A stretch of DNA of 62,879 nt, counting the filler, from Psammoneis japonica (lineage: Eukaryota), in assembly GCA_008632985.1 (NCBI GenBank). It is 5 parts of 5 records of this genome, joined end to end, with 100 filler letters (N's around TTAATTAATTAA, not from the genome) between each part and the next. Parts side by side here need not be neighbours in the genome. Positions count along the whole stretch, not along the records: positions 12,766 to 25,471 come from QPGO01000510.1; 4 more parts are not named here. One strand, 5' to 3'. Numbering within the stretch: the first letter of the stretch is position 1; the number at the start of each line of letters is the position of its first letter. The notes under the pieces were generated by a model that did no database searches, was not told where the DNA came from, and worked only from the letters and a program-made list of their open reading frames with translations. A program made the translations under genes and the position numbers. Positions 12,666-50,684 of this stretch are shown one piece after another.

Positions 12666-12765
12666 NNNNNNNNNNNNNNNNNNNNNNNNNNNNNNNNNNN
12701 NNNNNNNNNTTAATTAATTAANNNNNNNNNNNNNNNNNNNNNNNNNNNNNNNNNNNNNNNNNNNN
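12666..12765. other. Assembly gap with artificial TTAATTAATTAA linker (also 25471-25571, 38275-38374, 50585-50684; plain N gap 45782-46336)
   Basis: The same stop-in-all-frames 12-mer is centred in ~100-N runs four times. Confidence 0.97.
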
Positions 12766-13795
12766 CTGTCTGCGGCGCACCAGAGAAGTCACCACTCACT
12801 TGACAATCAGCCCAACTCAGGTTGTTGGACAGATGACCCTTGTCTTCAACACAGCCAAAATGAGGACACAAGCAGAGCAGCGTGGTTGATGAAATGCAAT
12901 GAGAGAAAGGCTGCAATTTGTTGGTGTCATGCAGCAACTGCATCGCGTCGATTGCTTCACAACAGTGCAGTGGCACCTGTGTTCAGCGCACCACAGGGCC
13001 CATCACAGACTCTCTGCTGCACTGGCCACTGGAGCAGAGTGCAGTTTTTTGAGGTCTGTGCTGCTGCAGCCTGTGCTCATGTCGAAGGCCAGACAGCTGG
13101 GCTTTCCCGTGCGTGCGTCGAGCGCGTTGCATCATGCAGCACACGCTGCATGCCGTGTGTGCGTCATGCGCATTGCATCATGCAGCACACACTGCTGCAT
13201 CATGCCAGCACCGCACCGCTGGCATGCATGCTGCGCAGTGCAAAACGGCACATTTGTTGGTCAGGCATCGACGCTGCTTGATGCCTCAGCCAAGTCATTG
13301 TTCGAGACAGTTTCTCAAGATGTTCCACCCAATTGGATGACAGCAAACACAACACTTCGAAGGGACTGTCTGAAACAGTGATTCTGGGGGCACACACGCG
13401 ATTTGGTGAGAAACGGCAGGTTGATCTGGTTGCCGCTTAGAGAAGGCTGTGGAGGGAGTTGGAAGCTCGGCCTTGCGCGGTGTGACCGCACGTTGAGTCT
13501 CGCTCACGAATCGTGATGATGACACTTTTCTTTTGTCACAACGTTGACGACCGCCATGGTCCATTTGGGCAAAGAGGTGGATTTTACTAAAAAATGGCTC
13601 CTGCGTGATTTCTACGGCGTCCCCACGCTAAATGGGAACAGATCCGCGATTGCTTGGTCGTGTGCAGCACAATAGATGATGAGTCGCAGATTATTGGCAC
13701 TGTCACCTTTATTGTTGAGTGCCACCCCCGGATGCCAAACGCCATTTTCCCGGTTTGATTTTTTGTGATTTGTGGCTGTTCGACGAAACTGGAAG

Positions 13796-15716
13796 ATGAC
13801 GGACCAGCATCCGCACGGCCAAGGCTCCTCTGGTGAAAAACAAGAAAAATTGGTGCCATCGTCCGCGTATGGGTCGAGTCATGTACGCAAAGCGTGGGCG
13901 AAACCGTACGAACTGTCATCGAACGAACAAGCAGAATCAACAACAAGAGAGTGTGAGGGTTCTCCTCGAACGAACAAAAAGTTTGCGAAGCGTATGCAAG
14001 GCGAGAGACCACGACAGGAAGAATCTCAATCAGAGCACTACCCTCCAGTGTACAAAGGAGATCCGAACCTTGACACACACATCCCAGAACACTCCCCTCT
14101 CGAGTGTTGGTGGCATCGCTCGTCATTCTGTTCGTTCCAGTCTTCGGAGAGAGGAAGAAGACTCCTGTGAAAACCGAGCGGTGCTTCCTGTAAGACGAAA
14201 CTCACAGAATCCTGAGACACATCGACACACCCAAAAGCCCCCCGTTGCAACTGCCGCAGCTGCCGGAGCGTTTGCGGTAGCTGGACCTGGTTCTGCTAAT
14301 GACACAAGCGCGGCTTTGCCGAGACAAGTGGTGGTGGATTCGTCAAATGAGCAACCTTCGATACCCATTGCTGCAGAGTTGGTGTCGGGTCCTGAAGGTC
14401 CTTTAACTCAAGAGATTCGAGAGCAATTACGAGCGGAACTTAGAGAAGCGATGGAAGCAGAGCTACAGAATCGAATTGTTGACGCACAAGTAATTCCTAT
14501 GGATGAGGAGGACTACCAGTCAAAACTACCTGATCAAAAGGAGCATCGAGTTGGACCAGAAGAGACTGCAATGGAAGTTGATGAAGAACGAAACAAGGAC
14601 TCAGAAATTTCGCCTCGGAAGCGCCGAAGGTACTGCATTGCCATCGTCTTTGTAGTTCTTTTGCTAGGGGCCGCAGGGGCAGTCGTGGCTGTGCTGCTAG
14701 CAGGCAAAAATGGCAGCGGCACACCCAGTATCCCTGCAGGCGCTGAGGGTGCCGCAGGAGGAAACAATGACACCGCCCCGCCAACTACAATTAAGCCAAT
14801 TCCGCCTGCACAAATTACGACACCACCCCAAGCTCCGGTTCCAACGCTCGATTCGACACCACTACGTCACCTCCGCCGACACCAGCCCTAACGCCTCCGC
14901 CGACACCACCTCCGACCCGGCCACCGACGCCGACACCGACCCCTCCACCTACCCCACCTCTGACCCGGCCACCAACCCGTCCTCCGACCGGCCACCAACC
15001 CGTCCTCCGACCAGGCCACCTACACCACGCCCAACTCCTTCACCGATCTCAAGGCCTAACTTCTTTTCAACCGAAACGTTCCGTCAGAATTACATACAAA
15101 AATGCTAGAGTATTCAAATACCGGGAGCAACATCAAATGCGTTTCCTTTACTCCAAGTGGTGGCTGGAGTATATTGCACGGGTACAATAGCTACTGGAAC
15201 TTCAACGTACCAAACACAGCCCACGAGAGGATGAAAGAACTATGGGATGAAGGACAAGAACTCAAGTTTGTCGCTTATGCTCCCAATGGCGGTTGGAGCA
15301 TACTTTACGGGCGGAACGGCTACTCCAACTACAACGTCCCGACCGAATTCAATACCAAAATGAGGGAGTTTAACGCTGGTGGGTATGAACTCAAGTGTGC
15401 CGCCTTTACGCCAGACGGTGCAGGTTGGACTATTCTGTATGGCTCTAATGGGTACTTGAGTCGCAACGTGCCACAGGATTCCATCACAAAGTTACAAGAG
15501 CTGAACAGCAATGGATATCATCTCAAACTAATCGCTTACACTTACCCACCACTCAATAATGGCTGGACCATCTTCTACGGCAGAAATGGATACTGGAACC
15601 AGAACGTTCCAATCGAAGCACACGAGAAAATTGGAGAGTATTCCAGTACAGGGTATGAACTGAAGCTGGTGGCTTATACTCCCAACGGTCGCGGCTGGAG
15701 TGTGTTGGCGAACTAA
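13796..15716 (+). CDS. Single-pass (type II) membrane protein: cytoplasmic N-terminus, TM helix, Pro/Thr stalk, four ~49-aa GGWxILYGxNGY..NVP repeats
   Basis: Joined across apparent 1-nt indels from ORFs 13772, 13833, 14710 and 15102. RKRRRY precedes the hydrophobic CIAIVFVVLLLGAAGAVVAVLLA; PPTRPPT stalk; repeats ELKxxAyTPxGxGWxIxYGxNGY. Confidence 0.8.
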
Positions 15717-15799
15717 ACAACAAGATCCCGCATTTGTCGGTAAACTACAGTGGAAAGTCGGTTGCGATGAGATTATAACTTCATGTTGTCTGCTGATGA

Positions 15800-16091
15800 A
15801 GCATTGACAAACGTAAGAACAACAGTTTTTGCAAAAAGAAAACCACGGTGTGTAAAACCAAACAAACCACGATTTTTCTGCCGACCGGGTCGTGCCTGAG
15901 TCTGTCGTGAGTTCAAAATTCTCCTCTGTTAAGGCAAGTAATCGAGAAGCAGCAGAGTTCAAGGGTGCCGACGATAATATCAGCACAATCAGAATATTCT
16001 GTATAAGCATCATTATCAGCTTGGCGTTGTTGATAAAACGGTACCACCAATTTCGATGAGACTTAGACTTGTCTTCGGTCTCCTTTTCCAT
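15800..16091 (-). pseudogene. Truncated thioredoxin/PDI-like gene fragment
   Basis: Hydrophobic leader, then LTEENFE...WFVWFYTPWFSFCK (degenerate FYAPWCxxCK). Similarity is lost immediately afterwards. Confidence 0.55.
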
Positions 16092-16329
16092 TGATTAGCG
16101 TCCAACCAGGGCAGTTATTCAGCACAAAATCGAGACTACTGTATTCAGAAACTCAAGACTTTTCAGAACTCCCCATGTGTTGATGATGTGCCGCTTCCCA
16201 CTTTCCGCATTTCCAATCTGGTGTAATTAGCCTAGAACGATAATCCATTTTCATACATTTTTGTGGGAGCATTTCCGAAATGCCGAACACTTGCCGAACC
16301 TTCTGCACTGTAGGGCAGGAATGACTTCC

Positions 16330-19300
16330 AGGCAGAAAGAGCACATTCACGTCAGCAACCATCACTCTCACCTGATGACGAAAAAAAAAAAGGGTAAGGT
16401 GCCATGCACATGCATGTCACCTCCTGCCAAGCCTGTCACAATTCCTCACAAACTGCATCAATCCTCATTGCAACCATGACTGCCACCCTGCATCCTGACA
16501 CTCTTCCTGATTCCCATGATGTTCCCTTGCTGCAGGCAACAAATGCTCTGCTCAAGGTGGCCCGTGTCACCCCTGGTGTCCTTTGTGCACCTGTCACTGA
16601 TGAATCCATGCTGTGGTGTGCCCAGCACTGGCTCTCATCAGGCTGATCTAGTTGCTGCTGCAAGGACTTGTTTGCTTGCTGTCCTGATTTAATGCCATCC
16701 ATGAACCAAGTCGATGCAACCAGTGTCACACAACTTTTGGTGCTTGCACGCAGAACCAGCACCTCCATCCACAGAAGATGCAGCCAGTTGTTGTCTCCAT
16801 TCCTGCACCTGCATGAGGCATCTCTGCATCTGATGCTGATGCCACACAGCACCCATGGATTTGCCCCATTAGATTGACACAAGAGCAGCAAACTGTCTCT
16901 TGGACATGGCTTTTGATGATCTAACAAGGAAATTGACTGGTCCTGAGAGAGAAGCAGAGATGTCAGGAAAAGTCTGCTTTGGCGTCTTGTTCCAAGAGAA
17001 AGAGCAATGCCACAAGATCTTCCATGATTCAAGCAGATGCAATGATGTTTGCAAAATTGCCATGTGATTCCTGGGAAGAGATGGCTTTTTAAATCAATGA
17101 TTGTTGTTTGCAACAGCAGCTTCATCCCATTTCTCAAATCCGAGTGTCTCTCATTTGCCAGACATTTTGCTTCTGTGCCTGCACCAACTTGACAATGTTG
17201 ATTTTTTGTCTGAGAAGTGTGGAAAATGTCATTGGCAAAATTTGTCCATGACAAATGGCGCGCACCAACAAGGGAGCAAAGAACAAGACACCAACCAAGA
17301 AAACAGCTGGCAAGAACAATCAGAAGCGCCTTGTGCAGCAGTGCAGAGTTGTGGCACACAAGAGAGTGTGGATTAAAAAAATGTGGAGCCTGCTAAAAAA
17401 AAGGAGCAGATTGCCAACTCAGAAAGGGCAGCAGAAGGAACTGGAAATCAGCAATGATGTTGAATCTGGACTGGGCAAATGCAAAACATTTGACAGTGTG
17501 GCTGATGCAATGAAGGCGTGGGAGATGATTGTGAAGATTCGGAGGATGGAAGAATGCAACAGCAGCGGTGCTTTGCCTGAAGACAGCTGCACTTGCAGGT
17601 GTGATCATTTGTGAGTCAGATCCAGAGAATCTTTGTCTTTTGGAAATTGTGAGAGTTGCAGATGACAGTCTGCAGGTTTGGGAGCACCACAGATGCACCA
17701 TGAGTCGTGCACAAATGTGACAATGCCGCTGGGTGAAAGGGTGACCCTGGCGCCAAGGTGGGTGCAATGCTCCAGCCAGCTGACACATTGATGGTGGCTC
17801 CAGTCAAAGCATTGCTGGGGCTGAAGCTGAAGGCTGCAGCAATGACCAGGTCCAGCCATGTTGCCTCTGCCTTTGAGCCAGTTGGTGGCTGCTGGCACAG
17901 TCTCACAAGCAGAAGCATGTTGCCAGCGGCCAAGGTGGCTTGTGTGGCATGACACTCAGCAGAGTGGGCGGCTCGGAGCTGGGCACTGAGTGCCATTGTC
18001 AGTGACAACAACTTGCGCAGGGAGTGCCAGAGAGGTGGTGGCCAGACTGTCTGCTGTTGCAGAGATGCCAAGCAACAGCCAGGGCAATGTTGTTGGAATT
18101 GAGGTCTGGACAAACACCACCACACTGCTTTGACAGCTGTGCTGACCAGATTGGAGCTGGAGAATGCCAAAAAGGCCAGAAATGGTCCCTCCAGAAGGAA
18201 GGCACCATCAAGAAAGTGGACAGCAGTCCATGACCACACTTCTCAGAGAGAGAAAACAAGGCAGCCAGCAATGCAGAAGCGCCAGAAGCTGAAGCTGAAG
18301 CACCAGCGGTGATGAAAGAAAAGAACAAGATTGCTGCAGCTTCTTGAGTGCTTGCAGCCATGAGTGCTGCTTCTGCGGCATGCAAAATGCCTCTGAAGCA
18401 GCGTCACAAAAAAACAGACCCCGCCCCACTCACGCATGGGGGGGCATGGACCACCATCTCCTGTTGGTCTCTGATCTGTGCCAAGGCAACATTGGGGAAG
18501 CACAACATCCAATCTGAGCAGGAGCTTGAGCTGTGGGACATTTGCAAGAATGACAAAGCCCTCATCATCATCTCCAATGATGAGCTGTTGGCAAGCCCCC
18601 TTTTTGTTTGTTGACACATGTTGAGTGCACCTCACTTGACAACACTGGCACCACCATCCAAGGGTGACAGAGCAGTCATTGAGCATTGCACTGCATGAGT
18701 TGACACAGATGACTCCCTCTGAGCTGAATCTTTGGAGGCTTGGAGAGACACCATTGGTGCATGCAGCTTGGCTCCAGGGGTGAAAACTTTGGATTTGAGT
18801 GATGATGGCACCATTTGTGTCACAGAACCTTTGGCCCTTGGTGCAGGCTGTTGGCTGCATTGTCAGGGCTGGGGGGCACCACTCAAATGTGCAATGCTCC
18901 AGTGCTTGTGTGGCATCACAGATGAAAGTGCAGCAGCTTTTTTCAGGGGCCAAAAATGAGAAAAGGGTGTTCCACTTGCATCTGTCACACAGCTCCATTG
19001 GCAGCATGTGCCAAAAATGAGAGATTTGGAGCACTGTTTGAGAGGAGCCCACTGTCTTCCAGCGGGCTGCAAGTTGCGAAGGCAACATGAGGAAATCCAG
19101 ACATCTGGATGGCTGAGCCCTCCAGATGACACAATCTGACAGCTGTTGCTGCAGTGATCGTGATGTGGAGGAGAGTCTTTTGTTTTGTGTGGTGCGAGTC
19201 TGGCAGCTCTGTGTGTGCACAGCAGATGAGCTCATTGGGAATGGTGCTGCCAAGTTGCTCTCCTTTTAATTGAATCCCAACAGTCACAACCAAGCTTGAA

Positions 19301-20350
19301 GAGGGAAAGCCAGATGGGTGGGAGACAAGGAGATGCTGCCTGGGGATGCTGTGTTGACCCCCACCATCTCATCGTCTGCACAAATCTGTCGCTGAAGGCA
19401 ATCTCTGCACCTGGTCAAGCCACTTGCAATGCCAGCTGCAAGTGTTCTCCAGCCAAATTGGCTGGACATTAGAGGGGGCTTGTTCTGGAGTGCCATCACA
19501 TTGCTGTCTGTTGTGATGAATTCTCACACCTCACGAGCCTGTTTTTGTGAGAGTCAGGTTCATCTGCGCAGGATGTGTCTGGTCCTTTTTGACCCTTTCC
19601 CCTCATTCTTCAACCACATTGTCTTCACAATCTAAGACATGACATTGTCCATGTTGTTTTTGGAGATCTTGGTGGTGCAACTGCATTTCTGGGCTTTGCA
19701 CTTGGTGAAATGAAGAGGTGGAGGATGGTTTGGCCGGGCACCTCACCTCCTCTTGGCTGCGCGGATGCCACAAACCACTGCTGGTGCCAGGTTCCATAAA
19801 ATTTGGCAGAGTCACTCAGAACCACCTCTGGGAGCTCATGTGGTGAGTGTGCTGTGATGTGTGTCCTCATTGGTTCATTGTTGTGTGTTTCGTTCCACTC
19901 GCCACATTTGCACCGCCTTGCTTGCTTGTCAGCAGTTTGCCAGCACGGAGTGTCTGTGGCTGCTGCGAGAGCCACATGACATGTGTTCTTTGACAACATT
20001 TGTTCATTTGGGGAATCAGATCCTGGAGTTTTCATTGTCTGGTTGTGGACAAATGTGGAAGATGGAGTTTGCTGCAGCAGGCGAACGTGCAATTGCGCTG
20101 TGTCTCTCGACGGCAGAGTTGGCAGCGAGCGTGTGCACATTGTCCCATGAGCACCAAACCAGCAGATGATGTGTTTGGATTTAGATGGCTCAATGGCTGT
20201 CATTGTTTGTTAGTCTGCCAGTGTTCATTAGAGTTGCGACTGTGTTGGAGCAACATCACATCATGGTCATGCCAGGTGCGGCACGGCGGTGGCACGGGCA
20301 CAATGCGGTGGCCCTTCCGGACTTCTTTTGCGTGTTTTCGACATGTGTTT
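16330..20350. other. TpA-depleted block of decayed coding/repeat sequence
   Basis: Near absence of TA from ~16.4 to ~19.6 kb, with TA returning gradually toward 20.35 kb. Confidence 0.85.
18480..19170 (+). pseudogene. Hypermutated partial paralogue of the LRR gene at 22.9-24.1 kb
   Basis: ttggggaagc..acatccaatctga..ggagcttga.ctgtggg, ttggatttga, tttggccctt and gaggaaatc.agac..caatctgaca are shared with 23221-24080. Confidence 0.85.
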
Positions 20351-21684
20351 GTAAAAAGCATAAAAAATTACCAATCTTTTAATCATTTATGACGCAATTA
20401 TGGAAAAAATATCCCAACGCATTCGGCGCTCACCGTGCAAACAACACGACAATGGCCGAAATGCCGTTCGTTCTCGAAAAATTAGAGGGGCAGCCTCCAA
20501 CTTTTTTCAGGGTATATCTCGTTTGATATAGGTAACAAACTTATGAAGAAAGTTGGAGGCATACCCACCTCCATTGCGTTCAACGAACGGCATTTCAGCC
20601 ATTGTCGTGTTGTTCTGCACGGTGAGCTCATAGAATTCGCGCTCAAGACGTTTGAGCGTTTTTCCATAAATCGCACGCATTCGCAAAAACTACTGTCTTA
20701 TTTTTATCCGTTTTTCCAGTGAAATTTCCAAAATGCCACAAACCACTGCTGGTGCCAGGTTCCATAAAATTTGGCAGAGTCACTCAGAACCACCTCTGGG
20801 AGCTCATGTGGTGAGTGTGCTGTGATGTGTGTCCTCATTGGTTCATTGTTGTGTGCTTTGTTCCGCTCACGTTTGCATTTTGCTTGTCAGCTTGCCAGCA
20901 TGGATGTCTGTGGCTGCTGCGAGAGCCGCGCGACATGTGTTCTTTGACAACATTTGTTCATTTGGGGAATCAGATCCTGGAGTTTTCATTGTCTGGTTGT
21001 GGACAAATGTGGAAGATGGAGTTTGCTGCAGCAGGCGAACGTGCAATTGCGCTGTGTCTCTCGACGGCAGAGTTGGCAGCGAGCGTGTGTACATTGTCCC
21101 ATGAGCGCCAAACCAGCAGATGATGTGTTTGGATTTAGATGGGCTCAATGGCTGTCATTGTTTGTTAGTCTACCAGTGTTCATTAGAGTTGCGACTGTGT
21201 TGGAGCAACATCACATCATGGTCATGCCAGGTACGGCACGGAGGTGGCACGGTGCACAGTGCGGTGGCCCTTCCGGACTTCTTTTGCGTGTTTTCGACAT
21301 ATATTTGTAAAAAGCATAAAAAATAACCAATCTTTTAATCATTTATGACGCAATTATGGAAAAAATATCCCAACGCGTTCGGCGCTCACCGTGCAAACAA
21401 CACGACAATGGCCGAAATGCCGTTCGTTCTCGAAATCTTAGAGGGGAAGCCTCCAACTTTTTTCAGGGTATATCTCGCTTGATATGGGTAACAAACTTAT
21501 GAAGAAAGTTGGAGGCCTACCCACCTCCATTGCGTTCAACGAACGGCATTTCAGCCATTGTCGTGTTGTTTGCACGGTGAGCTCAGAATTCGCGCTCAAG
21601 CCGTTTGAGCGTTTTTCTATAAATCGCACGCATTCGCAAAAAATACTGTCTTATTTTATCCGTTTTTCAAGTGCGTTCCAAAAT
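19765..21684 (+). repeat. Recent head-to-tail tandem duplication, period 968 bp (19765-20732 / 20733-21684)
   Basis: Both copies start atgccacaaaccactgctggtgccagg and end ..ttccaaaat; highly similar throughout. Confidence 0.95.
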
Positions 21685-21724
21685 CCAAAAGTTTCCAAAT
21701 TATTGTTAAAATTCTCAACGCACC

Positions 21725-22741
21725 ATGACGGTCTCTGAAAGTCAATCTCATGTGTCACTGCTGCAAATTGCAGCAGCACAATGGCTCGCCAAGCTCTCCG
21801 TTCGAATTCCGTACAATCGCCCGTTGGCACTCAAAGTGATTCTCGCCGTACCTCTGCTGCCATTAGCAGTTGCTGTTTTGTGCTTTTGTGTCAATCAAAT
21901 CACACCCGGAATTGTATTTCTGGTGCTCTTTTTGGTGATTGCATCGTACGCTCTCCATGTAGCCTCTACCCATTCGGCATATCCATTGCTACCCGAAGCC
22001 ACTCGAGGACGACGCCTGAGCGCTTCTCAAATTCGTGCCAAAAGCACCCCACTCTACGATGTCTACACTCCGCCGGGCCCCAAGCAAAATGTGCCTTGCG
22101 CTTTGCTCCTTGTTCCAGGTGCCAGGATTCGACCTGAATCCTATTCCGTAATTGCTCGATTACTGTCGGACGAGGGTATTCTCGTGATTGTTCAAAATAC
22201 GGCTCGGTCGAGCTATTATTTGCCATCCACGCTTACCGGTTCTGGGCCAGAAGAATTGCAACAAATCATGAGAGAGGTGGAGAAGGAGTACGAAATTCAA
22301 GAATGGGCCATTGGAGGGCATGATTCGGGTACTATTCCTGCAGCTCTTTGTGCACAACGATTGGGCGTTTCGAAACTTGTCCTGTGGGGTCCATCCACAA
22401 ATCAGTGGCGAGTGAATTTGAGCAAATCTCAAGTAATTGTCTTGGTCGTTCTGGTTGGTGACACGACGGATCGTATCGATAAGAATATTGAGAGTCGCCT
22501 TCCACCCATGGCTACTACTAGTTCATCAAGCAAAGGAGGGGTTACAATTTATTCCGTAATAAAGGGCGGCAACCGTTCGGGGTTTGCTCACTACAAATGT
22601 GAACATGCGCACGGAGAAGAGACGCTTCCCTTGCAAGAGCAGCAGCGACAGTGTGTGAGTGTGACTTCGCTGTTTTTGAAGCGTAGCCAAAGCTATTATA
22701 CGGATCAAAACTGCGACTACAATCTCATCGAGTCTTCGTGA
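21725..22741 (+). CDS. Membrane-anchored alpha/beta-hydrolase fold protein (Abhydrolase_5-like), probably catalytically inactive
   Basis: Two N-terminal hydrophobic helices; LLVPGARIRPESYSVIARLL; WAIGGHDSG (usually GHSxG); IKGGNRSGFAHY (usually GGNHxxF). Confidence 0.75.
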   Translation: MTVSESQSHVSLLQIAAAQWLAKLSVRIPYNRPLALKVILAVPLLPLAVAVLCFCVNQITPGIVFLVLFLVIASYALHVASTHSAYPLLPEATRGRRLSASQIRAKSTPLYDVYTPPGPKQNVPCALLLVPGARIRPESYSVIARLLSDEGILVIVQNTARSSYYLPSTLTGSGPEELQQIMREVEKEYEIQEWAIGGHDSGTIPAALCAQRLGVSKLVLWGPSTNQWRVNLSKSQVIVLVVLVGDTTDRIDKNIESRLPPMATTSSSSKGGVTIYSVIKGGNRSGFAHYKCEHAHGEETLPLQEQQRQCVSVTSLFLKRSQSYYTDQNCDYNLIESS

Positions 22742-22881
22742 AACTTAATCATCCAGTCGCCCTTCTACTATGGAGCTTTGCTGTTCAAGCTGACGAGCTT
22801 CATATTGAGAATGCTAGCAAGGATTGCGATTCGAATGGTACAACTGGAGACTGCAAGCTTCACTGCTTGTATCGGCGAGTG

Positions 22882-24078
22882 ATGAAGGATCCCATAATAG
22901 TTGCCCCTCTCAAATTGAGGAACTCGAAAAGCTCACGGCCAAACGGATTGATCCAATTACGTGCAAACCGGATCATGGTGGAAGTCGTGTCAACAATGGA
23001 AAGCTCAAATTCAATAGACCCATCCAGACCACAACGGAAGCACACAAGGTTGTCTTTTACGAATGCGTCGACTGGCCGTCCAATCAGCAGAAAGATGCAA
23101 ACTGGTCCAAGCGGTCGATGAATTATCGTGGTCACACCTGCAAAATGTGAAAAAGCTCATCTTTACATATTATGGCTTTGGAACTGAGGGAGCAATAGAA
23201 CTAGCTCGGGGGCTGTCTAGGAGCAACGTTGGGGAAGCAACATCCAATCTGAAGGAGCTTGACCTGTGGGTCATGGACAATGAATCGCTTGCCATCATCT
23301 CTGATGAGCTCTTGGCAAACCCTTTCTGTCAGTTGACAAGCTTTGAATATGCTTCAGTTGATGACAGTGATGACACCCCCAGGGTGGCGGTCATTTAGCA
23401 GGGCATTGCAAACTAACACATCACTGACCAAACTGAGTTTCCAAGGACTTAATAACTTCGGGTGTGTATGTGCACTTTTTGAAGGGCTGAAATACAACAC
23501 CAGTGTGGAAACCTTGGATTTGAACAACAATGAAGAAGGCGACGCAGTGTGTTTGGCCCTTAGCGAGCTGTTGGTTGCATCGTCGGGGCGCCGCTCAAAC
23601 GTGTAATCCTCTCTAACAGCTTCATCACGGACGAGGGTGCGGTGGCTCTTGCACAGGAGCTCATAAATGACAAAGGCTTGGACTCTTTAGATCTGAGTCA
23701 CAACGACATTGGTGAGAGAGGCATTTCTGCCTTGTTGGAGGCAGTGAGAGATCACAACAGAACCATTACTTGTCTCGATTTATCTCAATCTGGTCGGCGG
23801 CGTTACAGTGTACCAGAACTTAACAACATGATGATCGATCAGATTAGTTTCTACTGCTCGCTCAATCGTGCTGGTCGTCAACATGTGGGAGACACATCTG
23901 TACCAGCCGCCTTGTGGCCATGCATCTTGTACAAGGAACACATCAACTGTGACCCAAGTTAATGTTTGGAATGATCCGAGAGAGGCCCGACATCTTCCAG
24001 TGGGGTGCTAGTCGCAAAGGCGACACGAGGAAATCTAGACGTCCAGGTGGTTCGAGCTCTGTAGACGATACAATCTGA
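22882..24078 (+). CDS. RNI-like leucine-rich-repeat protein (frameshifted in this assembly)
   Basis: ALQTNTSLTKLSF, GLKYNTSVETLDL, LDLSHNDIGERGISALLEAV..NRTITCLDL, and the C-terminal LNRAGR..ALWPCIL motif typical of expanded diatom LRR families. Split across four ORFs. Confidence 0.75.
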
Positions 24079-24385
24079 CATCTACTGCCGTGATTGCGAC
24101 TTGTGGGTAGTCTATTGTAATGAATCTAGTAGTAGTGGTGTATGCATAATTTTGTTTTATACAGCAGGTCCAGTTCGCCCCTGTAATATGGACGTCGGCG
24201 GTTCACCCTGACGAGCTACGTAATGTTCCTCCCAATGAGTACCTACGTATAATATCTAGAAAGTAGGGTGTCGCCATCGGTACAAAGACATTGGCACCCT
24301 GACACAAACATGAAAAGCAATGTGCTCGTTCTATTCATATTATATAAACTGCAGTACAGGTTGTACAAACCGACCACTCCTTTGC

Positions 24386-25470
24386 TCAAGCTGTATGAAC
24401 CCGCACGTCAATCACATTCAAATCCAACTCTTGCTTGAGTGTAGATAAATCTGTCAAGAGTGCGTGCAAGCTTTCGTCATCAAGGATACGCGAGGTCGTA
24501 CACTCGGCCTCCACCACAAATTCTCGTGTTTTGGTCTTGTTTGTCATTTGCAAGTCGGTCGAAAGCGACTCGACCGATAGGCCCTTGTCCGCCAACCGTT
24601 CGGCAACACTGGCCAGTACGCCGGGTCTGAAAAAAAAAGAGAAAGAATATCATAAGCATTTACAAACCAATACCAATAACGCACGGTGCCCTATTTCATA
24701 ACCAAACTTGACTTACTTGTCTGCCCCGACACACTTGACACGAATTCCCATGACCGCTTGATCGTAGGTTCCAGTCATTCGTCTATTCAAGTGGTGGCAC
24801 GAATATCCAATGGCTTCAGAGCTTTTTCATTCATAACACCGTCAATGAGATCCTTTCTCTGTTTCGGCGGCACGCTCACATGCATCAATATAACAAACTC
24901 TTGTCCCAATCGTACCATGCTGCTATGCGTCACATTCCACCCCTATCGGCAATGCATCTCGCCAACAACGCCACAACGCCGACTCGATCCGGACCACTGG
25001 CGGAAATACACACATGATGCAAATCACGATCCAACTCGACGGGCCCTGTAAAGACATCGTGAAATCCTTCCTTCATGATACTCATGGTGGCTCCCGTCAC
25101 GGCTCCACCAGCCATGTCTTCTCCGTGCATGACATCACCACCACGCATGGCACTTAAAATACAAGTCCAAACCAAAGACACGCCGCCACAAAGGGAATAC
25201 GAGCGTACATGGGCATGAAAGCAAAATTGACTGCAGTCGCTGGAACCCACACTTTCCAAAGTGCTGACAAGTCGTCGGCCATGTTTTCCTTGTATTCCGC
25301 CAGGACACGTCCAAAATCGGGCTTGTCACTCATGACAAACTCTCGTGTACAGTAGAATGCCGGAAAGTACATGAATGGATGGTGGACACATTGATCCAAA
25401 AACACTTGTGCCCCGAGCGCCGCCATGCCCTTGACATCCTTTAGTTTTTGACGCAACGACTTGGCCGCAA
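24386..25470 (-). CDS. Mpv17/PMP22-family membrane protein fused to two C-terminal ACT domains (5' end lost in gap; intron 24627-24716)
   Basis: QVFLDQCVHHPFMYFPAFY..WKVWVPATAVNFAFMP..RIPFV (Mpv17), then HVCISASGPDRVG.VA.LA..IA and, across a GT-AG intron, VKCVGADKPGVLASVAERLADKGLSVESL (ACT). Confidence 0.8.
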
Positions 25471-25571
25471 ANNNNNNNNNNNNNNNNNNNNNNNNNNNNN
25501 NNNNNNNNNNNNNNNTTAATTAATTAANNNNNNNNNNNNNNNNNNNNNNNNNNNNNNNNNNNNNNNNNNNN

Positions 25572-28255: not shown

Positions 28256-28366
28256 TGCATGGCATGCTGTGCACAGCGCGAGCGGCGGGGACAGTCCATG
28301 AATGACGTCAATGTGACAACATGATGCGCATCTGTCTATCCTATCTAACAACAAAATTTTTCAGTC

Positions 28367-28790
28367 ATAAGCAGTGTGCACCTAAATTTTGTGGGAAAAA
28401 AACCGTTAAATAATTAAGTGGATGAATATGTTTCAATGATCATATCTCTCCCTCAAACACTATCATCCGAACAAACCCTCAGTGTCTTACCCCCCTTTTC
28501 ATATACGAGGAATTTGGTTCTGCTGTTCGTTTTCTCCGATAACGCGATTTGGGAAAACAGCCGTTAAATTTATTAGTGAATGGATATATTTAACNGGTTT
28601 TTTCTCAAATCGCGTTATAGGAGAAAACGAACAGCAGAACCAAATTCCTCGTATATGAAAAGGGGGGTAAGACACTGAGGGTTTGTTCGGATGATAGTGT
28701 TTGAGGGAGAGATATGATCATTGAAACATATCCATCCACTTAATTATTTAACGGTTTTTTTCCCACAAAATTTAGGTGCACACTGCTTAT
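28367..28790. mobile_element. ~424-bp near-perfect palindrome (MITE-like hairpin, possible TA target site)
   Basis: Arms ~28367-28567 and ~28591-28790 are reverse complements with a few mismatches (ATAAGCAGTGTGCACC..GGTGCACACTGCTTAT). Single n at 28595. Confidence 0.7.
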
Positions 28791-29384
28791 TGCCAAAAAT
28801 TTCCGTTGCTTTGAATGTCTATATGAACTAAAAAGAGGAAGAAAATTTCAACCGAATCAAAATTGATACTGTTGGACAAAAATGTTGGTATATTAAAGCC
28901 GACTTTACATACACACTCTATAGCCAAGTAACGTTCTTTAAATATTAATATAGTTAATGTCTTTTTACCTATATTAAATTTTCAACATTCACACGAATAA
29001 CTGAGATGCCAACCGGCAGCAACCCGCGCCGCCAGCATACAAACAACACGCCATACTTACTGCACTGCAACAGCAACGCCGCACATTGGGCGCCAACAAT
29101 CCAAGACCTGCAAGTACGTGAAGAGACGACCCAACGGCAATCGGGTAGTCGTGTGTTGTGTGTGTGTGTTTTCTTTTAATGTGGGCGAGGCATTGTGCCA
29201 ACAACAAGAACGAGATTGACTACTCGGTTGATCACCACTCCAACGTACTATTTTTATTATTTTCGTCGGTGGTAACCTTTGACTTGTGGTACAACTTCTA
29301 CGTGGTTTCTACGCCGTATTTGTTCTGGAGTTGAAAAACGCTAAACGAGTGCTTTTGAAGTAGTTTTGAACGAGAAACACAACC

Positions 29385-37800: not shown

Positions 37801-39104
37801 CCGCATGTTCTCCACATTTGACACAAGAGACTTTGTGAACAATGCCCTCAATTGTGGGTTTACCATGCACAAGTGCAAGGAGTGTTGGGACTGTGTCGCG
37901 AATCACCAGGACAGGTGGGGCATGAGGCACTGTGTGCACAGTCATTGCCACAAAGATGGGTGGAGTCAAATGAGAGATGAGTTCGCAGTGGGATCCGTGG
38001 GCTAAATGGAGTTTGCCATGGATGTGGATGACATTCATGGTTTGAGGGACAAGTCACTCATCAGCTTGCCGACTTGTTGAGTGGATGATGAAGGAACGTG
38101 CGGACCACTTGGACAAAGTTCAAGGTGGGGAGGAATGTTCCAACTGGTGATGGACAAAGATGGGATCACCTTTGATGCCCCAACACTGGCAAAGTGATTC
38201 AATCATGATGTGAGATGTGACATGCCTGACAACCTTTGGTTTTGTGATGGACTTGAGTTCTTTTGTTTGTCACCNNNNNNNNNNNNNNNNNNNNNNNNNN
38301 NNNNNNNNNNNNNNNNNNTTAATTAATTAANNNNNNNNNNNNNNNNNNNNNNNNNNNNNNNNNNNNNNNNNNNNGCAAGCAAGCGCTGAGTGCAATTTTT
38401 GGGGGCACCATGTCTCCATTGTTGTTCTGGAGCAAACAGCAAATGGTGTTGATTTGGCTGATGCAGCCAACGTGCACGTGCACCTTGACAATCTGTCGCG
38501 CTGCATTCTGACATTTTGGAATGAAAAGAAGTGCTTGCATTTGCATCCCTCTGTCACAACAGAAATGTGCAAGCTTTCCCTGGCCCTTTTGGAGCAGTCG
38601 GTGGGTGAGTGAAAGCAGACCTGTTGAAAGATGCAGATGACGCCATTTTGACACCATTTTGATGCATTGTCATCTGGTGGTGTCCTTGTCATTTGTGATG
38701 AAGTGCCATGCTCTCTGGTTTTGCAGAGCGCGCATCAGTGATCTGCCCCCCTTTTCAGTGGCAATTTTTGTTCCTTTGGCAGACAAAACATTTGTGGTTT
38801 CAAACCTCATCAGCTGCGCAGCTGGCAATGAGTGGTTGCCTGTGCAAGACAAATGATTTCTGCCAGGAAGCCCAACTCTCAACTGTCAAATCACTTGTGC
38901 CACCAAACATCCTCCTTTGCATCCTGTCAATGTACGAGCCCTCTTTTGCTGCAGAAACTGACAATCAACAACATTTTGGTTTTTGCATCACAAGCTGAAA
39001 TTTGAGTGACAATGCTTTCTGTGCATTGACTTTTGTTCCGCTTTCCTCAATGAACTCTGAACATTGCTTTTGCTTGCACACACAGTGCATCAATGAACAC
39101 CAAA

Positions 39105-40899: not shown

Positions 40900-43800
40900 G
40901 TCACGACCCAAAGCTTCTTTGACCACATGAAATTTGCAAATGTGAGTTGCTTGAGCATGAACAACCAACACAAATGGACAAAAAAAATCTGCGCGAAAAG
41001 GTCAAACACCTTGCACCATGAAAAGCGTCTTTGACCACATGACATTTGCAAATGTGAGTTGCTTGAGCATGAACAGCCAATGCAAATGGGCAAAAAAAAT
41101 CTGCGCAAAAAGGTCAAACACCTTGCGCCATGAAAAGAACATTCAAGTGTTGGCATCACAGTCAAAAGAGTGACACAAACAAAATGCAGTGGCGCGGCAA
41201 AAACCAATGAAAGTGATTGCCGCCACATTGCAGGCTCTCATGTGCTTGGCTTTTGGGTGGCTTCTGTGCAAAAAGCACCCCGGGCAATCTCTGGACCACC
41301 GCCTCAAAGGTCAAATGGCTTCAAACAAAGCTTTGACAAAGAAACTTGGCAGTTGCTGTTGGTTTTGCAGCGTCAGTGCTCAGGTTCAAATTTTTCCTTT
41401 TTTGGGTTCAAACTTTCAACTTCAACCAACTTGGGTTTTAAGTTTGAATTTTGAACCCAGCTGGGTCCAAAATTGCAGTTTTTGACCCGCCCCGAAAAAG
41501 GAAGGCGTGCACTTCTCACGAGGCAGCAGGCGACCTGTGCACATTTCCTGTCAGTTTCAGCTGCACTTGAGCAGACACACCAGACAATCTTTGGACCACC
41601 GCCTCAAAGGTCACATGGCTCCAAACAAAGCTTTGACAAAGAAACTTGGCAGTTGTTGTTGATTTTGCAGCATCAGTGCTCGGGTTCAATTTTTAACCTT
41701 TTTGGGCTCAAACTTTCAATTTCAACCAACTTGGGTTTTAAGTTTGAATTTTGAACCCAGCTGGGTCCAAAGCAGCAGTTTTCAACCCAACCCAAAGCTT
41801 GAAAAGGTCAAACACCTTACATTGTGAAAACAATGTTCAAGTGCTGGCATCACAGTCAAATGAGTGACACAAACAAAATGCAGTGGCGTGGCAAAAACGA
41901 ATGAAAGTGATTGCCGCCACATTGCAAGCTCTGATGTGCGTGGCTTTTGGGCAGTTTCTGTGCAAAAAGCATGCCAGGCAATCTCTGGGCCGCCGCCACC
42001 TCAAAGGGCAAATGGCTCAAAACAAAGCTTTGACAAAGAAACTTGGCAGTTGCTGTTGGTTTTGCAGCATCAGAGCTCAGGTTCAAATTTTTCCTTTTTT
42101 GGGTTCAAACTTTCAATTTCGACCAACTTGGGTTTTTAAATTTGAGTTTTGAACCCAGCAGGGTCCACAACTGCAGTTTTCAACCCGCCCCAAAAAAGGA
42201 AGGCGCGCACTTCTCATGAGGCAGCAGGTGACCTGCGCACATTTCCTGTCAGCTTCAGCTGCACTTCAGCAGACATGCCGCAGTTCTTGGCCCGTTCATT
42301 TTCTGCTTGGCCTGGCACAACCCAAATCCATGATGATTTGGCACATTTTGCCCTGCAGAAGAGTTTTTGGGAGTGTTCTCTGGCTCGCGACACCAAACAA
42401 CATGCAAAGTGACAAGGACAACAAGGTTTTGCCAATTTCAAAAATGTGGTTTGCTGCATGCATGCAGACAAAAGGTTGTTTTTGTCATGCCCTTTGTGAC
42501 ATTTGAAGGCTGCAACACGTCGCCGTGGTGCATCAACTCTCATTGGCAGCTGTGTGCTGCGCTCCTCCCCATGCATCACGCGTCCATGCGGCTCTTTGCC
42601 AACGTGCGCTGACACTGCACGGTTTTGGCGGAACAGTGTGGGTGCGCACGAAGGAACATGCAGAGCTGCACAGAGTTTCACGCGTTCGACAGTGATCAAC
42701 GTTGCTGCAGACAACTCCCGCTCAGGGTTTCGAACCCCTGGCCTCCTGCCTGATGGCTGCGATGAACCACTCCGCTGTGAATTCACAGTGCAGTGTGCAT
42801 GCAGACAAAAGGTCATTTTTGTCACGCCCTTTGTGACATTTAAAGGCTGTGACACGTTGCCGTGATGCGCTGACTCTTGTCAGCAGCTGTGTGTTGCAGG
42901 TTGTTTCTGAGTTGCTTTGCAGTGTGCTCTTGATGGAGTGCTGCACATCGTGGCACAAGGCGTGATGATCTCAAGAGTGCACAGGCTCGCATGAGTGGCT
43001 GATGGCAAAAAATGGTGTTGGGGGTTTGCATTGACAACATTTCCTCTGTTGTGTTGTGACTGACCTCATGCACTGCCACTCATGCTGTTTGTTTCTCTGA
43101 GGCTTTGTGTGCTCACATCCAATTGACTTGCGCGCACTTTCTCTTTCTGTGCTGCGCTTTTGTTCTGCAGGCTCTGCATTGTTGTGAGGTGCCCCAGAGA
43201 CACTTTTTCTCTGCCAGCTCATCATGGTGGCTCCAACAACGTGGGCCACTTCTTTTGGCTGTGCTGCAGTTGAGCTCAAGAGTGCACAGGCTTGCATGGG
43301 TGGCTGATGGCAAAAAATCATCTTGGGGGTTCGCACTGACAACATTGCCTCTGTTGCGTTGCGACTGACCTCGTGCACTGACCTTCATGCTTTGTGCCTT
43401 GCTGAGGCTTTGTGTGCTCACAGTTGTTTGGCTTGTGTGTGATTTCTCTTTCTGTGCCGCGCCTTTGTTCTGCAGGCTCTGCATTGTTGTGAGGCACCCC
43501 AGAGACACTTTTTCTCAACCAGAGCATTGTGGTGGCTCCAACGGTGCAAACCACTTCTTTTGACTGTGCAGCAGCTTTGTGACCCAACAAATTTGGCAAG
43601 TGAAAGAGGAGCCATCAAAAGATGCAGATGATGCCATTTTGATGCATTTTCGTCTGGCGGCGTCATTGTCGCTCATGACAAAGAGCCGCGCTTTCTTGCT
43701 TTTTGCTGCGTCTGTGTGAGAAAAGTGTGTGCTTGGCTCTTGGGCAGTTTCTGTGCAAAAAAGTGCCGGGCATTCTCTGAACCGCCCTCTCAAAGGCCAA

Positions 43801-46800
43801 ATGGCTCTGAACAAAGCTTTGACAAAGCAGCTCAGCAGCTGTTGTTGGTTTTGCAGCGCCGGTGTTCGGGCTCAATTTTTTCCCTTTTTTGGGCTCAAAC
43901 TTTCAATTTTAACCAACTTGGGTTTTCAGTTTCGATTTTGAGCCCGATTGGGTCCAAAATTGCAGTTTTCGACCCGACCCAAAGCTTTGGTCACAAAACA
44001 CTTGCAAGTGCAAGTTGCTTGAGCATGAATGATCAACGCAAATGAAAAAAAAAATCCTCATGAAAAGGTCAAACACCTTGCGCCATGAAAAGAATGTTCA
44101 AGTGTTGGGGTCACAGTCAAAAGAGCAACAAAAACAAAATGCAGCGGCGCAACAAAACCAATGAAAGTGATTGCCGCCACATTGTGGGCTCTGATGTGCT
44201 TGGCTCTTGGGCAGTTTCTGCAGAAAAAGCACGCCAGGCAATCTCTGGACCGCCGCCTCAAAGGTCAAATGGCTCCAAACAAAGCTTTGACAAAGGAACT
44301 TGGCAGCTGTTGTTGATTTCTCAGCGTCAGTTCTTGGGTTCAAATTTTTCCTTTTTTGGGCTCAAACATTCAATTTCAACCAACTTGGGTTTCAAACTTG
44401 AATTTTGAACCCAGCTGGGTCCAAAATTGCAGCTTTTGACCTGCAGCCTCAGTGGCGGGGTTCAATTTTTTCTTTTTTGGGTTCAAACTTTCAACTTTGA
44501 CCAGCTTGGGTTGCAAATTTGAATTTTGAACCCAGCTGGGTCCAAAATTGCAGTTTTCAACCCGGCCCAAAGCTTTGGTCACAAAACGCTTGCAAGTGCA
44601 AGTTGCTTGAGCATGAATGATCAACGCAGATGAAAAAAAAAATCCTCATGAAAAGGTCAAACACCTTGCACCATGAAAAGAATGTTCAAGTGTTGGGGCC
44701 ACAGTCAAAAGAGCAACAAAAACAAAATGCAGCGGCGCAACAAAAGCCAATGAAAGTGATTGCCGCCACATTGTGGGCTCTGATGTGCTTGGCTCTTGGG
44801 CAGTTTCTGCAGAAAAAGCGCGCCAGGCAATCTCTGGACCGCCGCCTCTGAGGTCAAATGGCTCCAAAAAAAGCTTTGACAAAGGAACTTGGCAGCTGTT
44901 GTTGATTTCTCAGCATCAGTGCTTGGGTTCAAATTTTTCCTTTTTTGGGTTCAAACTTTCAATTTTGACCAGCTTGGGTTGCAAACTTGAATTTTGAACC
45001 CAGCTGGGTCCGAAATTGCAGTTCTTGACCCGACCCAAAGCTTTCTTCACAAAACATTTGCAAGCGCAGTTGCTTGAGCATGAACGATCAACGCAAATGA
45101 AAAAATCCTCGTGAAAAGGTCAAACACCTTGCGCCATGAAAAGAACGTTCAAGTGCTGGCATCACAGTCAAAAGAGCAACAAAAACAAAATCATGCAGCG
45201 GTGCAACAAAAACCTGTGAAAGTGATTGCCGCCACATTGTGGGCTCTGATGTGCTTGGCTCTTGGGCAGTTTCTGCAGAAAAAGCATGCCAGGCAATCTC
45301 TGGACCGCCACCTCAAAGGTCAAATGGCTCCAAACAAAGCTTTGACAAAGGAACTTGGCAGCTGTTGTTGACTTCTCAGCATCAGCTCTTGGGTTCAAAT
45401 TTTTCCTTTTTTGGGCTCAAACATTCAATTTCAACCAACTTGGGTTTCAAACTTGAGTTTTGAACCCAGCTGGGTCCAAAGTTGCAGCTTTTGACCTGCA
45501 GCCTCAGTGGCGGGGTTCAATTTTTTCTTTTTTGGGTTCAAACTTTCAATTTTGACCAGCTTTGGTTGCTGACTTGAATTTTGAGCCCAGCTGGGTCCAC
45601 AGCTGCAGCTTTTGACCCGAGACGCGCCCCAGGTCTAGGTGGCACCTCGCAATGCTGAACTGTGACATCTGCAGTTTTTTGAATCGCGTCGCATGTCGCG
45701 CACGTACATTTCTACGTGATTTTGGCGAAATTTTGCATGATTTTATGGTGCATTGATCAGGCCATCCATTGAACAACTTTTNNNNNNNNNNNNNNNNNNN
45801 NNNNNNNNNNNNNNNNNNNNNNNNNNNNNNNNNNNNNNNNNNNNNNNNNNNNNNNNNNNNNNNNNNNNNNNNNNNNNNNNNNNNNNNNNNNNNNNNNNNN
45901 NNNNNNNNNNNNNNNNNNNNNNNNNNNNNNNNNNNNNNNNNNNNNNNNNNNNNNNNNNNNNNNNNNNNNNNNNNNNNNNNNNNNNNNNNNNNNNNNNNNN
46001 NNNNNNNNNNNNNNNNNNNNNNNNNNNNNNNNNNNNNNNNNNNNNNNNNNNNNNNNNNNNNNNNNNNNNNNNNNNNNNNNNNNNNNNNNNNNNNNNNNNN
46101 NNNNNNNNNNNNNNNNNNNNNNNNNNNNNNNNNNNNNNNNNNNNNNNNNNNNNNNNNNNNNNNNNNNNNNNNNNNNNNNNNNNNNNNNNNNNNNNNNNNN
46201 NNNNNNNNNNNNNNNNNNNNNNNNNNNNNNNNNNNNNNNNNNNNNNNNNNNNNNNNNNNNNNNNNNNNNNNNNNNNNNNNNNNNNNNNNNNNNNNNNNNN
46301 NNNNNNNNNNNNNNNNNNNNNNNNNNNNNNNNNNNCTTTTTTGGGTTCAAACTTTCAATTTTGACCAGCTTGGGTTGCAAACTTGAATTTTGAACCCAGC
46401 TGGGTCCAAAATTGCAGTTCTCGACCCGACCCAAAGCTTTCTTCACAAAACATTTGCAAGCGCAAGTTGCTTGAGCATGAGCGATCAACGCAAATGAAAA
46501 AATCCTCGTGAAAAGGTCAAACACCTTGCGCCATGAAAAGAACGTTCAAGTGTTGGCATCACAGTCAAAAGAGCAACAAAAACAAAATCATGCAGCGGCG
46601 CAACAAAAACCTGTGAAAGTGGTTGCCGCCACATTGTGGGCTCTGATGTGCTTGGCTCTTGGGCAGTTTCTGCAGAAAAAGCATGCCAGGCAATCTCTGG
46701 ACCGCCACCTCAAAGGTCAAATGGCTCCAAACAAAGCTTTGACAAAGGAACTTGGCAGCCATTGTTGATTTCTCAGCGTCAGCTCTTGGGTTCAAATTTT

Positions 46801-49800: not shown

Positions 49801-50584
49801 TTTGACAAAGGAGCTTGGCAGCTGTTGTTGATTTCTCAGCGTCAGTTCTTGGGTTCAAATTTTTCCTTTTTTGGGCTCAAACATTCAATTTGAACCAACT
49901 TGGGTTTCAAACTTGAATTTTGAACCCAGCTGGGTCCAAAATTGCAGCTTTTGACCTGCAGCCTCAGTGGCGGGGTTCAACAATTTTCTTTTTGGGTTCA
50001 AACTTTCAATTTTGACCAGCTTGGGTTGCAAATTTGAACTTTGAACCCAGCTGGGTCCAAAATTGCAGTTTTCGACCCAACCCAAAGCTTTGGTCACAAA
50101 ACGCTTGCAAGTGCAAGTTGCTTGAGCATGAATGATCAACGCAAGTGAAAAAAAAATCCTCGTGAAAAGGTCAAACACCTTGCGCCATGAAAAGAATGTT
50201 CAAGTGTTGGGGCCACAGTCAAAAGAGCAACAAAAACAAAATGCAGTGGCGCAACAAAAGCCAATGAAAGTGATTGCCGCCACATTGTGGGCTCTGATGT
50301 GCTTGGCTCTTGGGCAGTTTCTGCAGAAAAAGCGCACCAGGCAATCTCTGGACCGCCGCCTCCAAGGTCAAATGGCTCCAAAAAAAGCTTTGACAAAGGA
50401 GCTTGGCAGCTGTTGTTGATTTCTCAGCATCAGTGCCTGGGTTCAAATTGCTCCTTTTTTGGGCTCAAACTTTCAACTTTGACCAGCTTGGGTTGCAAAC
50501 TTGAATTTTGAACCCAGCTGGGTCCAAAATTGCAGCTCTCGACCCGACCCAAAGCTTTCTTCACAAAACATTTGCAAGCACAAG
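40900..50584 (+). repeat. Complex satellite array (~300-590 bp units) with a ~6-kb higher-order duplication
   Basis: aaaaggtcaaacacctt recurs at ~40997, 41108, 41802, 44063, 44651, 45114, 46511, 47100, 47797 and 50165. 41.45-44.9 kb is repeated at 47.45-50.58 kb. Confidence 0.93.
42715..42785 (-). other. tRNA-like remnant (Pol III A and B boxes), possible SINE head
   Basis: Minus strand CAGCGGAGTGG (A-box with TA->CA) and CAGGGGTTCGAAACCCTG (B-box/T-arm stem-loop). No clean cloverleaf. Confidence 0.3.
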
Positions 50585-50684
50585 NNNNNNNNNNNNNNNN
50601 NNNNNNNNNNNNNNNNNNNNNNNNNNNNTTAATTAATTAANNNNNNNNNNNNNNNNNNNNNNNNNNNNNNNNNNNNNNNNNNNN

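Follow-up and report, generated by a model that had tools for sequence, protein, structure and literature searches.

A composite transposon relic, tandemly duplicated just upstream of an alpha/beta-hydrolase gene in the diatom Psammoneis japonica (GCA_008632985.1), lies at the edge of an intergenic domain from which TpA has been almost entirely erased. The mutator is specific for TpA and acts by chromosomal position; the tandem copy adjoining the domain has lost five TpA sites that the gene-proximal copy retains. Our leaning, which stops short of a firm conclusion, is that the tandem arose at a pre-existing edge of this domain and that the edge has been nearly static. The usual mutation bias is AT-ward. 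A GC-ward, TpA-specific mutator of mobile DNA runs counter to this bias, and we found one described in a single preprint, on an unrelated alga; finding it in a diatom as well suggests that this genome-defence chemistry is more widespread. What the present locus adds is that the edge of such a domain beside a gene can be sharp and long-lived, and that duplication is not the trigger.

The window (the whole stretch of DNA analysed, 62,879 nucleotides) consists of small contigs joined by N linkers, with the locus on contig C512 (G000:C512; window positions 12766–25471). The artificial linkers (12666–12765, 25472–25571, 38275–38374 and 50585–50684) each comprise 44 N, a 12-base TTAA repeat and a further 44 N; features spanning them are not contiguous. 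Throughout the window, near-TA-free, low-CG blocks alternate with normal DNA, the TA observed/expected ratio in a window scan being near 0 inside the blocks and mostly 0.4–1.1 outside. The tandem sits between one such block (about 16400–19500) and the hydrolase gene. The features of the locus are:

16400–19509, no strand: TA-erased, CG-poor intergenic block, mostly single-copy; left edge located separately
19510–20331, plus strand: right part of the element A relic, matching copies on C65, C138, C187 and C42 at 80–86%; the last bases of its right end are deleted
19765–20732, plus strand: tandem copy 1, distal to the gene and adjoining the erased block; 968 bp, 24 TA
19888–19977, no strand: stretch in which the substitutions and small indels separating copy 1 from copy 2 are densely packed; on either side the copies are identical, over 123 and 158 bp
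20136–20347, no strand: the edge zone in copy 1, where five TpA sites have mutated away from the ancestral state (T>C at 20136; A>G at 20217, 20278, 20345 and 20347)
20332–20737, plus strand: MITE B core of copy 1, TA-retaining, with both terminal repeats lost; about 20 near-full dispersed copies
20418–20627, no strand: long inverted repeat internal to MITE B, found as a self-match; counterpart in copy 2 at 21378–21592
20733–20737, plus strand: 5-bp microhomology at the copy junction, ATGCC, present in the right part of the MITE (C75, C163, C66) and in element A at 19765–19769
20733–21684, plus strand: tandem copy 2, gene-proximal; 952 bp, 28 TA
21288–21684, plus strand: MITE B core of copy 2, ending about 40 bp before the ATG of the gene; right end altered
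21725–22741, plus strand: alpha/beta-hydrolase gene (PF12695), 338 aa, of normal TA content; start in agreement with homologs

In 500-bp bins across 16501–19500, the TA observed/expected ratio is 0–0.13 and that of CG 0–0.25. The original prediction had described this neighbour as a repeat block; a genome search instead found 16400–19509 to be mostly single-copy at the sensitivity of the search, with short dispersed repeat remnants of 66–85% identity. The block is bounded on the left by a probable membrane-protein gene (13869–15716) in two frames, the second of which carries repeated GGWSIL-type motifs; the gene gave no Pfam match and only weak leads in the protein atlas. The N-terminus of the hydrolase was compared with those of homologs and its start agrees with theirs; six homologs match at 42–52% identity over 93–97% of the length. 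Elsewhere, the window contains a hairpin with 225-bp arms (28349–28808) and a large TA-free array (41100–50550) with units of 300, 467 and 589 bp. The assignment to the diatoms accords with the silicon-transporter family, to which the wider genome has 24 matches, some ten of which are close to full length; at C38:226311–230342 (G000) three silicon-transporter repeats lie within one 1511-aa frame.

The duplicated unit is itself composite. In the genome search, its positions 1–546 match one dispersed family and positions 568–956 another, and these matches indicate that the right part of element A was fused to the core of MITE B at about 20331; the fusion, with both adjoining termini lost, is identical in copy 1 and copy 2. 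Since A and B match separate dispersed families, the TA-poor left and TA-rich right halves of each copy are in the first place a family boundary. The contrast was predicted correctly as a matter of counts (one TA in each copy at the left end, 19 in each at the right), but only in part as a mutation gradient, the halves being largely two repeat families, superimposed on a boundary older than the duplication. Element A is old and TA-erased, and is related to a family of non-coding DNA transposons of 1.88 kb with CTACCGG terminal inverted repeats and variable 4-bp target duplications; young copies of this family are mostly over 99% identical, and the element has been recently active. Dispersed copies of MITE B are about 430 bp long, non-coding and bounded by terminal inverted repeats, with ends reading TTAA, TTGA or TCAA. 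They are thus short, non-coding, dispersed elements with terminal inverted repeats and a target duplication, whereas the tandem copies have lost both termini. In size class, terminal inverted repeats and ends the dispersed copies resemble MITEs with TTAA target duplications, and from its GG termini MITE B may be Kolobok-like, piggyBac being the alternative superfamily; the copies in the tandem were multiplied by duplication, not transposition. The MITE B palindrome folds, as single-stranded DNA, with an energy of −75.6 kcal/mol (z −12.9). The A part of copy 2 is erased although it now lies between two TA-rich B cores, so the edge of the domain predates the duplication.

The predicted 968-bp tandem at 19765–21684 is genuine, with copies of 968 and 952 bp, and two near-identical contigs carry both copies. 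Contig C166 wholly repeats C512 at 99.8% identity, with 2 mismatches and 18 gap openings, and we read the two contigs as the two haplotypes. Within the tandem they differ by one 1-bp indel (a base of a G run) and show zero TA differences; elsewhere, they differ by 2 mismatches and a complex indel, namely an indel at the gene start with a linked substitution at 21760, and a substitution near 19160. A contig of run X1, possibly the assembly's own sample, has the C166 form at the gene start and at 21760, and the C512 form near 19160. The depth in X1, taken from contigs and not reads, is 59–61 in the flanks, 86 for a copy-2-specific contig and, by subtraction, about 60 for copy-1-type sequence (20690–20701); stacked haplotypes would predict about 30. 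The coverage check proposed with the original prediction therefore came out on the side of a tandem, since copy-specific depth is not halved and each haplotype contig has both copies. Among the X1 contigs listed, beyond which there are 139 further records, none crosses the copy junction.

The haplotypes differ at the hydrolase gene. In C166 and in the X1 contig, the bases bearing the ATG (21725) are absent from the interval 21718–21760; in the C166 allele no in-frame ATG follows for about 180 codons, and because of these two features the C166-type allele could be a null allele. At 21760, the linked substitution sets TG against TA. An allelic partner was sought for another contig of the window and none was found.

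Copies 1 and 2 align at 94.65% identity over 972 columns, with 30 mismatches and 11 gap openings. Their TA counts (copy 1/copy 2) are 1/1 in 19765–20130, 3/8 in 20131–20350 and 19/19 in 20351–20732, for totals of 24 and 28. The five additional TA to TG/CA changes, predicted for the copy nearer the depleted block, were placed exactly: copy 1 has CA at 20136 and TG at 20217, 20278, 20345 and 20347, and copy 2 retains TA at all five counterparts (21090, 21172, 21233, 21301 and 21303). A-family outgroups carry TA at 20217 in two of four cases and at 20278 in one of four, with mixed TG and CA states at 20136; at the MITE columns 20344 and 20346, some copies have TA and others both TG and CA. Most TA columns among the 22 aligned B copies show the three states TA, TG and CA, with CG rare, which fixes TA as ancestral in the MITE; together with the A-family states, the alignments make TA the ancestral state at the five sites, lost in copy 1 only. 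We infer that these losses postdate the tandem, in keeping with the prediction that mutation went on after duplication. Two further TA-class differences, at 20530 (TA in copy 1, TG in copy 2) and 20665 (CA in copy 1, TA in copy 2), are most likely gains of TA, to judge from the outgroups, in which 12 of 13 other MITE copies have G at 20530 and 12 of 13 have C at 20665; the polarised count of TA losses therefore stays at 5:0.

The polarity check on the full alignment thus gave a one-sided result, with zero polarised TA losses in copy 2 relative to copy 1, but the 5:0 asymmetry is weak by itself (two-sided sign test, p=0.0625; at face value 6:1, p=0.125), as is its contrast with neutral changes, which a hand tally put at 8 in copy 1 and 7 in copy 2 (Fisher p=0.11). 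As to position, the five lost sites of copy 1 lie to the left of 21 kept ones (exact one-sided rank test with 20368 and 20665 omitted, p=0.008). An apparent skew of CpG decay towards copy 1 (7:2 at face value) was discarded, several CG of copy 2 being derived from TA or CA, as TA-rich outgroups indicate. The CG of copy 1 at 19891 and 19946 are gains, and a combined test of TA and CG losses (12:2) was dropped because only 19896 and 20420 hold as copy-1 CpG losses. The differences between the copies are also patchy: two gaps as long as the identical tracts of 123 and 158 bp occurred together in 0.3% of 20,000 uniform simulations (p=0.003). This patchiness suggests conversion or a mosaic history, which loosens the dating of the tandem.

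With five informative sites, the tandem is a low-power example, and the stronger evidence comes from dispersed copies. Among 13 young A-related copies, taken from 30 loci with the older subfamilies and the divergent C122 omitted, 95 of 133 substitutions are TpA>G (2403 site-copies); 65 of the 95 come from a single copy, C96, and some events are common to several copies. Other contexts are hardly touched in the same copies (CpA>G 5/6545, ApA>G 1/3588, GpA>G 1/2939). The second commonest change is CpG>TpG (9/2432), TpA loss being about ten times more frequent per site, and C>T at CpA accounts for one event against the 95. C96 (C96:186298–188180), which lies between an erased block and the 3′ end of a gene, has lost 64 of 98 TA with 7 other and 5 CpG changes, and its losses fall on both strands (30 to TG, 34 to CA). 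Strand-coordinated bursts, considered since four of the five tandem sites and most sites in the C32c copy of MITE B are A>G on one strand, were rejected on C96 (31 runs versus 33.4 expected).

Several comparisons show that the mutator acts by chromosomal position. The TA content of MITE B copies follows that of their flanks (Spearman 0.63, p=0.005, n=18 of 22 aligned; copy 2, C32b, C32c and C371 were dropped as non-independent). The cleanest positional control is a same-site comparison: the copy C27, which has an ATG 62 bp from its left end, has lost one of ten sites in its gene-side third, and the same ten sites have been lost in 9/10 cases in C164, 10/10 in C161 and 9/10 in C96 (28/30 in total). 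In copy 2 almost all TA has gone at distances above about 640 bp from the ATG, and in C27 above about 450 bp. A close parallel to the edge-side losses of the tandem is found at C32:499235–500512, where three MITE B copies stand in a row upstream of a gene and keep most TA to about 1.4 kb; the outer copy, C32c, has lost 7 of 19 sites, all towards the end adjoining an erased block, and the TA-free block starts exactly there. Sequence context does not account for the sparing of the copy 1 MITE, which keeps ATAT, ATAC and GTAA sites, contexts mostly lost elsewhere. The expectation that position matters, and not duplication as such, is thus borne out by the C27 control and by the two MITE halves of the tandem, each with 19 TA; the predicted sparing of the gene-proximal segment in both copies is equally exact (19/19 TA in 20351–20732). 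Both MITE cores having remained almost untouched after the copies parted, the mutator is indifferent to duplication. As a separate observation, C297 and C371 form a 3.1-kb pair (93% identity) in which one member keeps 35 TA and the other 2; C297 begins with 600 bp rich in TA, the counterpart of which in C371 is erased, a paired contrast much stronger than that of the tandem locus.

There are counter-examples. Both flanks of C38 are erased, but it has lost only 2 of 98 sites, and C53 has lost 0 of 98; the losses of C142 do not face an erased flank; C73a is an intact MITE B between TA-poor flanks, and C67 an erased one about 200 bp from TA-rich DNA. Losses among copies that are alike in neutral divergence range from 0 to 64 of about 98 TA sites. 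The gradient of losses along C96 (p=3e-6) was set aside as a clean demonstration: part of it belongs to the element itself, since fewer sites are also lost in the last third of C161 and C164, which have TA-poor DNA on both sides. Resistant CTAC and CTAG contexts cluster in the right half of C96, and without them the halves stand at 34/38 versus 25/38 (p=0.026). From these counter-examples and the partly intrinsic gradient, it follows that timing, episodic activity and position are mixed.

The tandem does not look recent, contrary to what had been proposed. With TA and CG columns masked, the B cores of copies 1 and 2 differ at 5 of 253 columns, close to the 5–12 per about 250 neutral columns that separate each tandem core from six dispersed sister MITEs. 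On the mutator's clock the duplication is fairly old. Age estimates for transposon copies of this genome will come out too high if TA sites are left unmasked. All six sisters lie in TA-poor surroundings and have lost 7–13 of the 15 TA sites kept by both tandem copies; copy 1 has lost 5 of its 26, all within 20136–20347. Because its MITE stayed intact at 1–1.4 kb from the gene, the edge can have crept by about 200 bp at most, and an edge that has barely shifted is a better fit than an advancing one.

In the history we favour, the 5-bp microhomology ATGCC would have served to duplicate an A–B composite relic just upstream of the hydrolase gene. The duplicated unit would already have straddled the edge of a domain in which TpA is converted to TpG or CpA, with both strands hit. 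After the copies parted, the distal copy would have lost five more TA in a 210-bp zone on the domain side; both MITE cores would have been left almost untouched, the mutator presumably being held off near genes. Silent chromatin may guide the mutator, and the loss of TpA would be explained by adenine deaminated to inosine and read as G.

The main rival for this history is that unequal crossing-over at ATGCC joined two diverged single-copy alleles, one of which had already undergone a burst of TpA loss in the edge zone. We regard this as possible, though on the unlikely side. Both alleles would then have been mostly gene-adjacent, and, with the same tentative standing, the 5:0 count would be silent on position after duplication. 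Such a joining would explain how the copy 1 MITE is intact at 1–1.4 kb from the ATG despite erasure beyond about 640 and 450 bp in copy 2 and C27, as well as the large, patchy divergence and the unlike right ends of the copies. It would also accord with Bigelowiella natans, in the available description of which hypermutation affects only some lines (10.64898/2026.01.13.699255), and with two possible allele pairs of this genome, C73/C383 and C297/C371, which differ by 0.75% and 5.8%. Against it, no more than 2 substitutions separate the haplotypes here over 12.7 kb, and 0–3 separate two further redundant contig pairs over 3–4 kb, whereas the copies differ by about 3%; moreover, most TA survives in the triple MITE on C32 as far as about 1.4 kb from an ATG without such a history.

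For the chemistry, we infer adenine deamination in DNA by analogy with the published case discussed below; its main rival, which we consider unlikely, is that the T of TpA is modified (for example, oxidised and then mispaired with G) or that an error-prone polymerase is responsible. As TpA is palindromic, adenine deamination and thymine modification are inseparable by sequence, and the lack of strand runs in C96 gives no sign of a processive single-strand editor. The WA signature is that of polymerase eta, and the sparing of ApA (1/3588) is unlike it. The published parallel also favours a deaminase, in its accessible text as a hypothesis only (10.64898/2026.01.13.699255). The positional reading would be unchanged under either form of this rival. 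The genome has nine PF00383 matches, including one with HAE and PCVMC (L105) and one with HAE and a PCIM motif that the end of the frame truncates (L108); these ADAT2/TadA-like genes are expected to be tRNA editors and are not diagnostic of the mutator. Nor are the 27 PF00145 C5-methyltransferase matches (among them C297, C301, C10 and C28), several of which are clustered or broken by stops and may be borne by mobile elements. Profile searches for Tet_JBP and MT-A70 gave no match, and neither did their positive controls.

A broader proposal, which we hold to be doubtful, is that diatoms possess a chromatin-guided, adenine-editing DNA defence, a reverse RIP, that would nibble outwards from silenced domains until stopped by barriers such as the palindromic MITE B. 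At a similarly speculative level, duplication of MITE B would have moved the protected edge about 1 kb off the gene, a reading to which the triple B on C32 also points. However, most B copies inside erased blocks are themselves erased, so any barrier effect of MITE B would need to be context-dependent.

The original prediction, in which the duplication is recent and a front of mutation, starting from the adjacent block, is continuing to consume it, is in our view improbable. The clustering of copy 1 losses on the block side is what such a front would produce; C32c shows a like pattern, C101 does so weakly (p=0.08), and in the part of the literature available to us RIP shows a comparable gradient that reaches into adjoining sequence (PMC2973834). 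The neutral distance between the copies, as large as that between dispersed sisters, speaks against a front, as does C96, which is less diverged (7 other changes in 1865 bp) and yet has lost 64/98 TA, compared with 5/26 in copy 1. Outward spread also sits poorly with a copy 1 MITE that keeps 19 TA while sisters of like age are nearly erased, and with haplotypes that are identical in TA across the tandem. That the assembly wrote two haplotypes in tandem is very hard to credit: C512 is small and redundant and its junction is spanned by no listed read contig, but both copies occur in both haplotype contigs, copy-specific depth equals or exceeds that of the flanks, and the junction has microhomology with the ancestral end of the MITE.

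We therefore return to the tandem at a nearly static, positional edge, and compare it with known systems. A search for TpA erasure in diatoms, with subscription journals and bioRxiv supplements outside its coverage, found no literature report, the sole relevant source being the preprint on B. natans. In the diatom Phaeodactylum tricornutum, CpG decay is described in DNMT5-methylated transposons, and the accessible part of that article mentions neither TpA nor adenine (PMC9998398). As in that case, so far as that part describes it, the erased blocks here are CG-poor, CpG>TpG ranks second among the changes, and C5-methyltransferase matches occur in the genome; unlike it, TpA loss exceeds CpG loss about tenfold per site, and several erased MITEs keep most of their CG.

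Among the hallmarks of RIP are a RID/DNMT4-type methyltransferase and premeiotic timing. Here, as in RIP, mobile DNA is marked by dinucleotide-specific transitions, which grade off across hundreds of bases where mutated DNA meets spared DNA; in Leptosphaeria maculans, the available account describes RIP leaking into flanking DNA (PMC2973834). The likeness is confined to this edge gradient, which is seen in copy 1, C27 and C32c. RIP, as described there, makes TpA from CpA, whereas here TpA is destroyed, with the single C>T at CpA noted above; RIP targets duplicated sequence, whereas here an adjacent, 95%-identical pair keeps 19 TA per MITE half. As a mechanism RIP was accordingly rejected, the direction being reversed and duplication not the trigger.

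The closest system is TpA-restricted hypermutation of integrated NCLDV and virophage DNA in B. natans (Mettrop et al., bioRxiv 10.64898/2026.01.13.699255). According to the main text of that preprint, hypermutation was measured in single-copy viral inserts and target duplication is not required; the de novo rate is about 1000-fold above background in a subset of lines; and adenine deamination is proposed, not shown, with a candidate ADAT2-like deaminase carrying HxE and PCxxC (10.64898/2026.01.13.699255). In both systems, as far as that text goes, A>G and T>C occur almost only at TpA, on both strands and in defined regions, without a need for duplication, and action is uneven, among lines there and among copies here. 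They differ in host, B. natans being a chlorarachniophyte and ours a diatom, and in target, here non-coding transposon relics in intergenic islands of a few kb; erasure is here near completion, with edges mappable to a few hundred bases beside genes, and the main text of the preprint, abstract to conclusion, does not describe edge gradients. The signature at our locus thus matches the recently described B. natans mutator, and the value it adds is that the edge is positional and long-lived.
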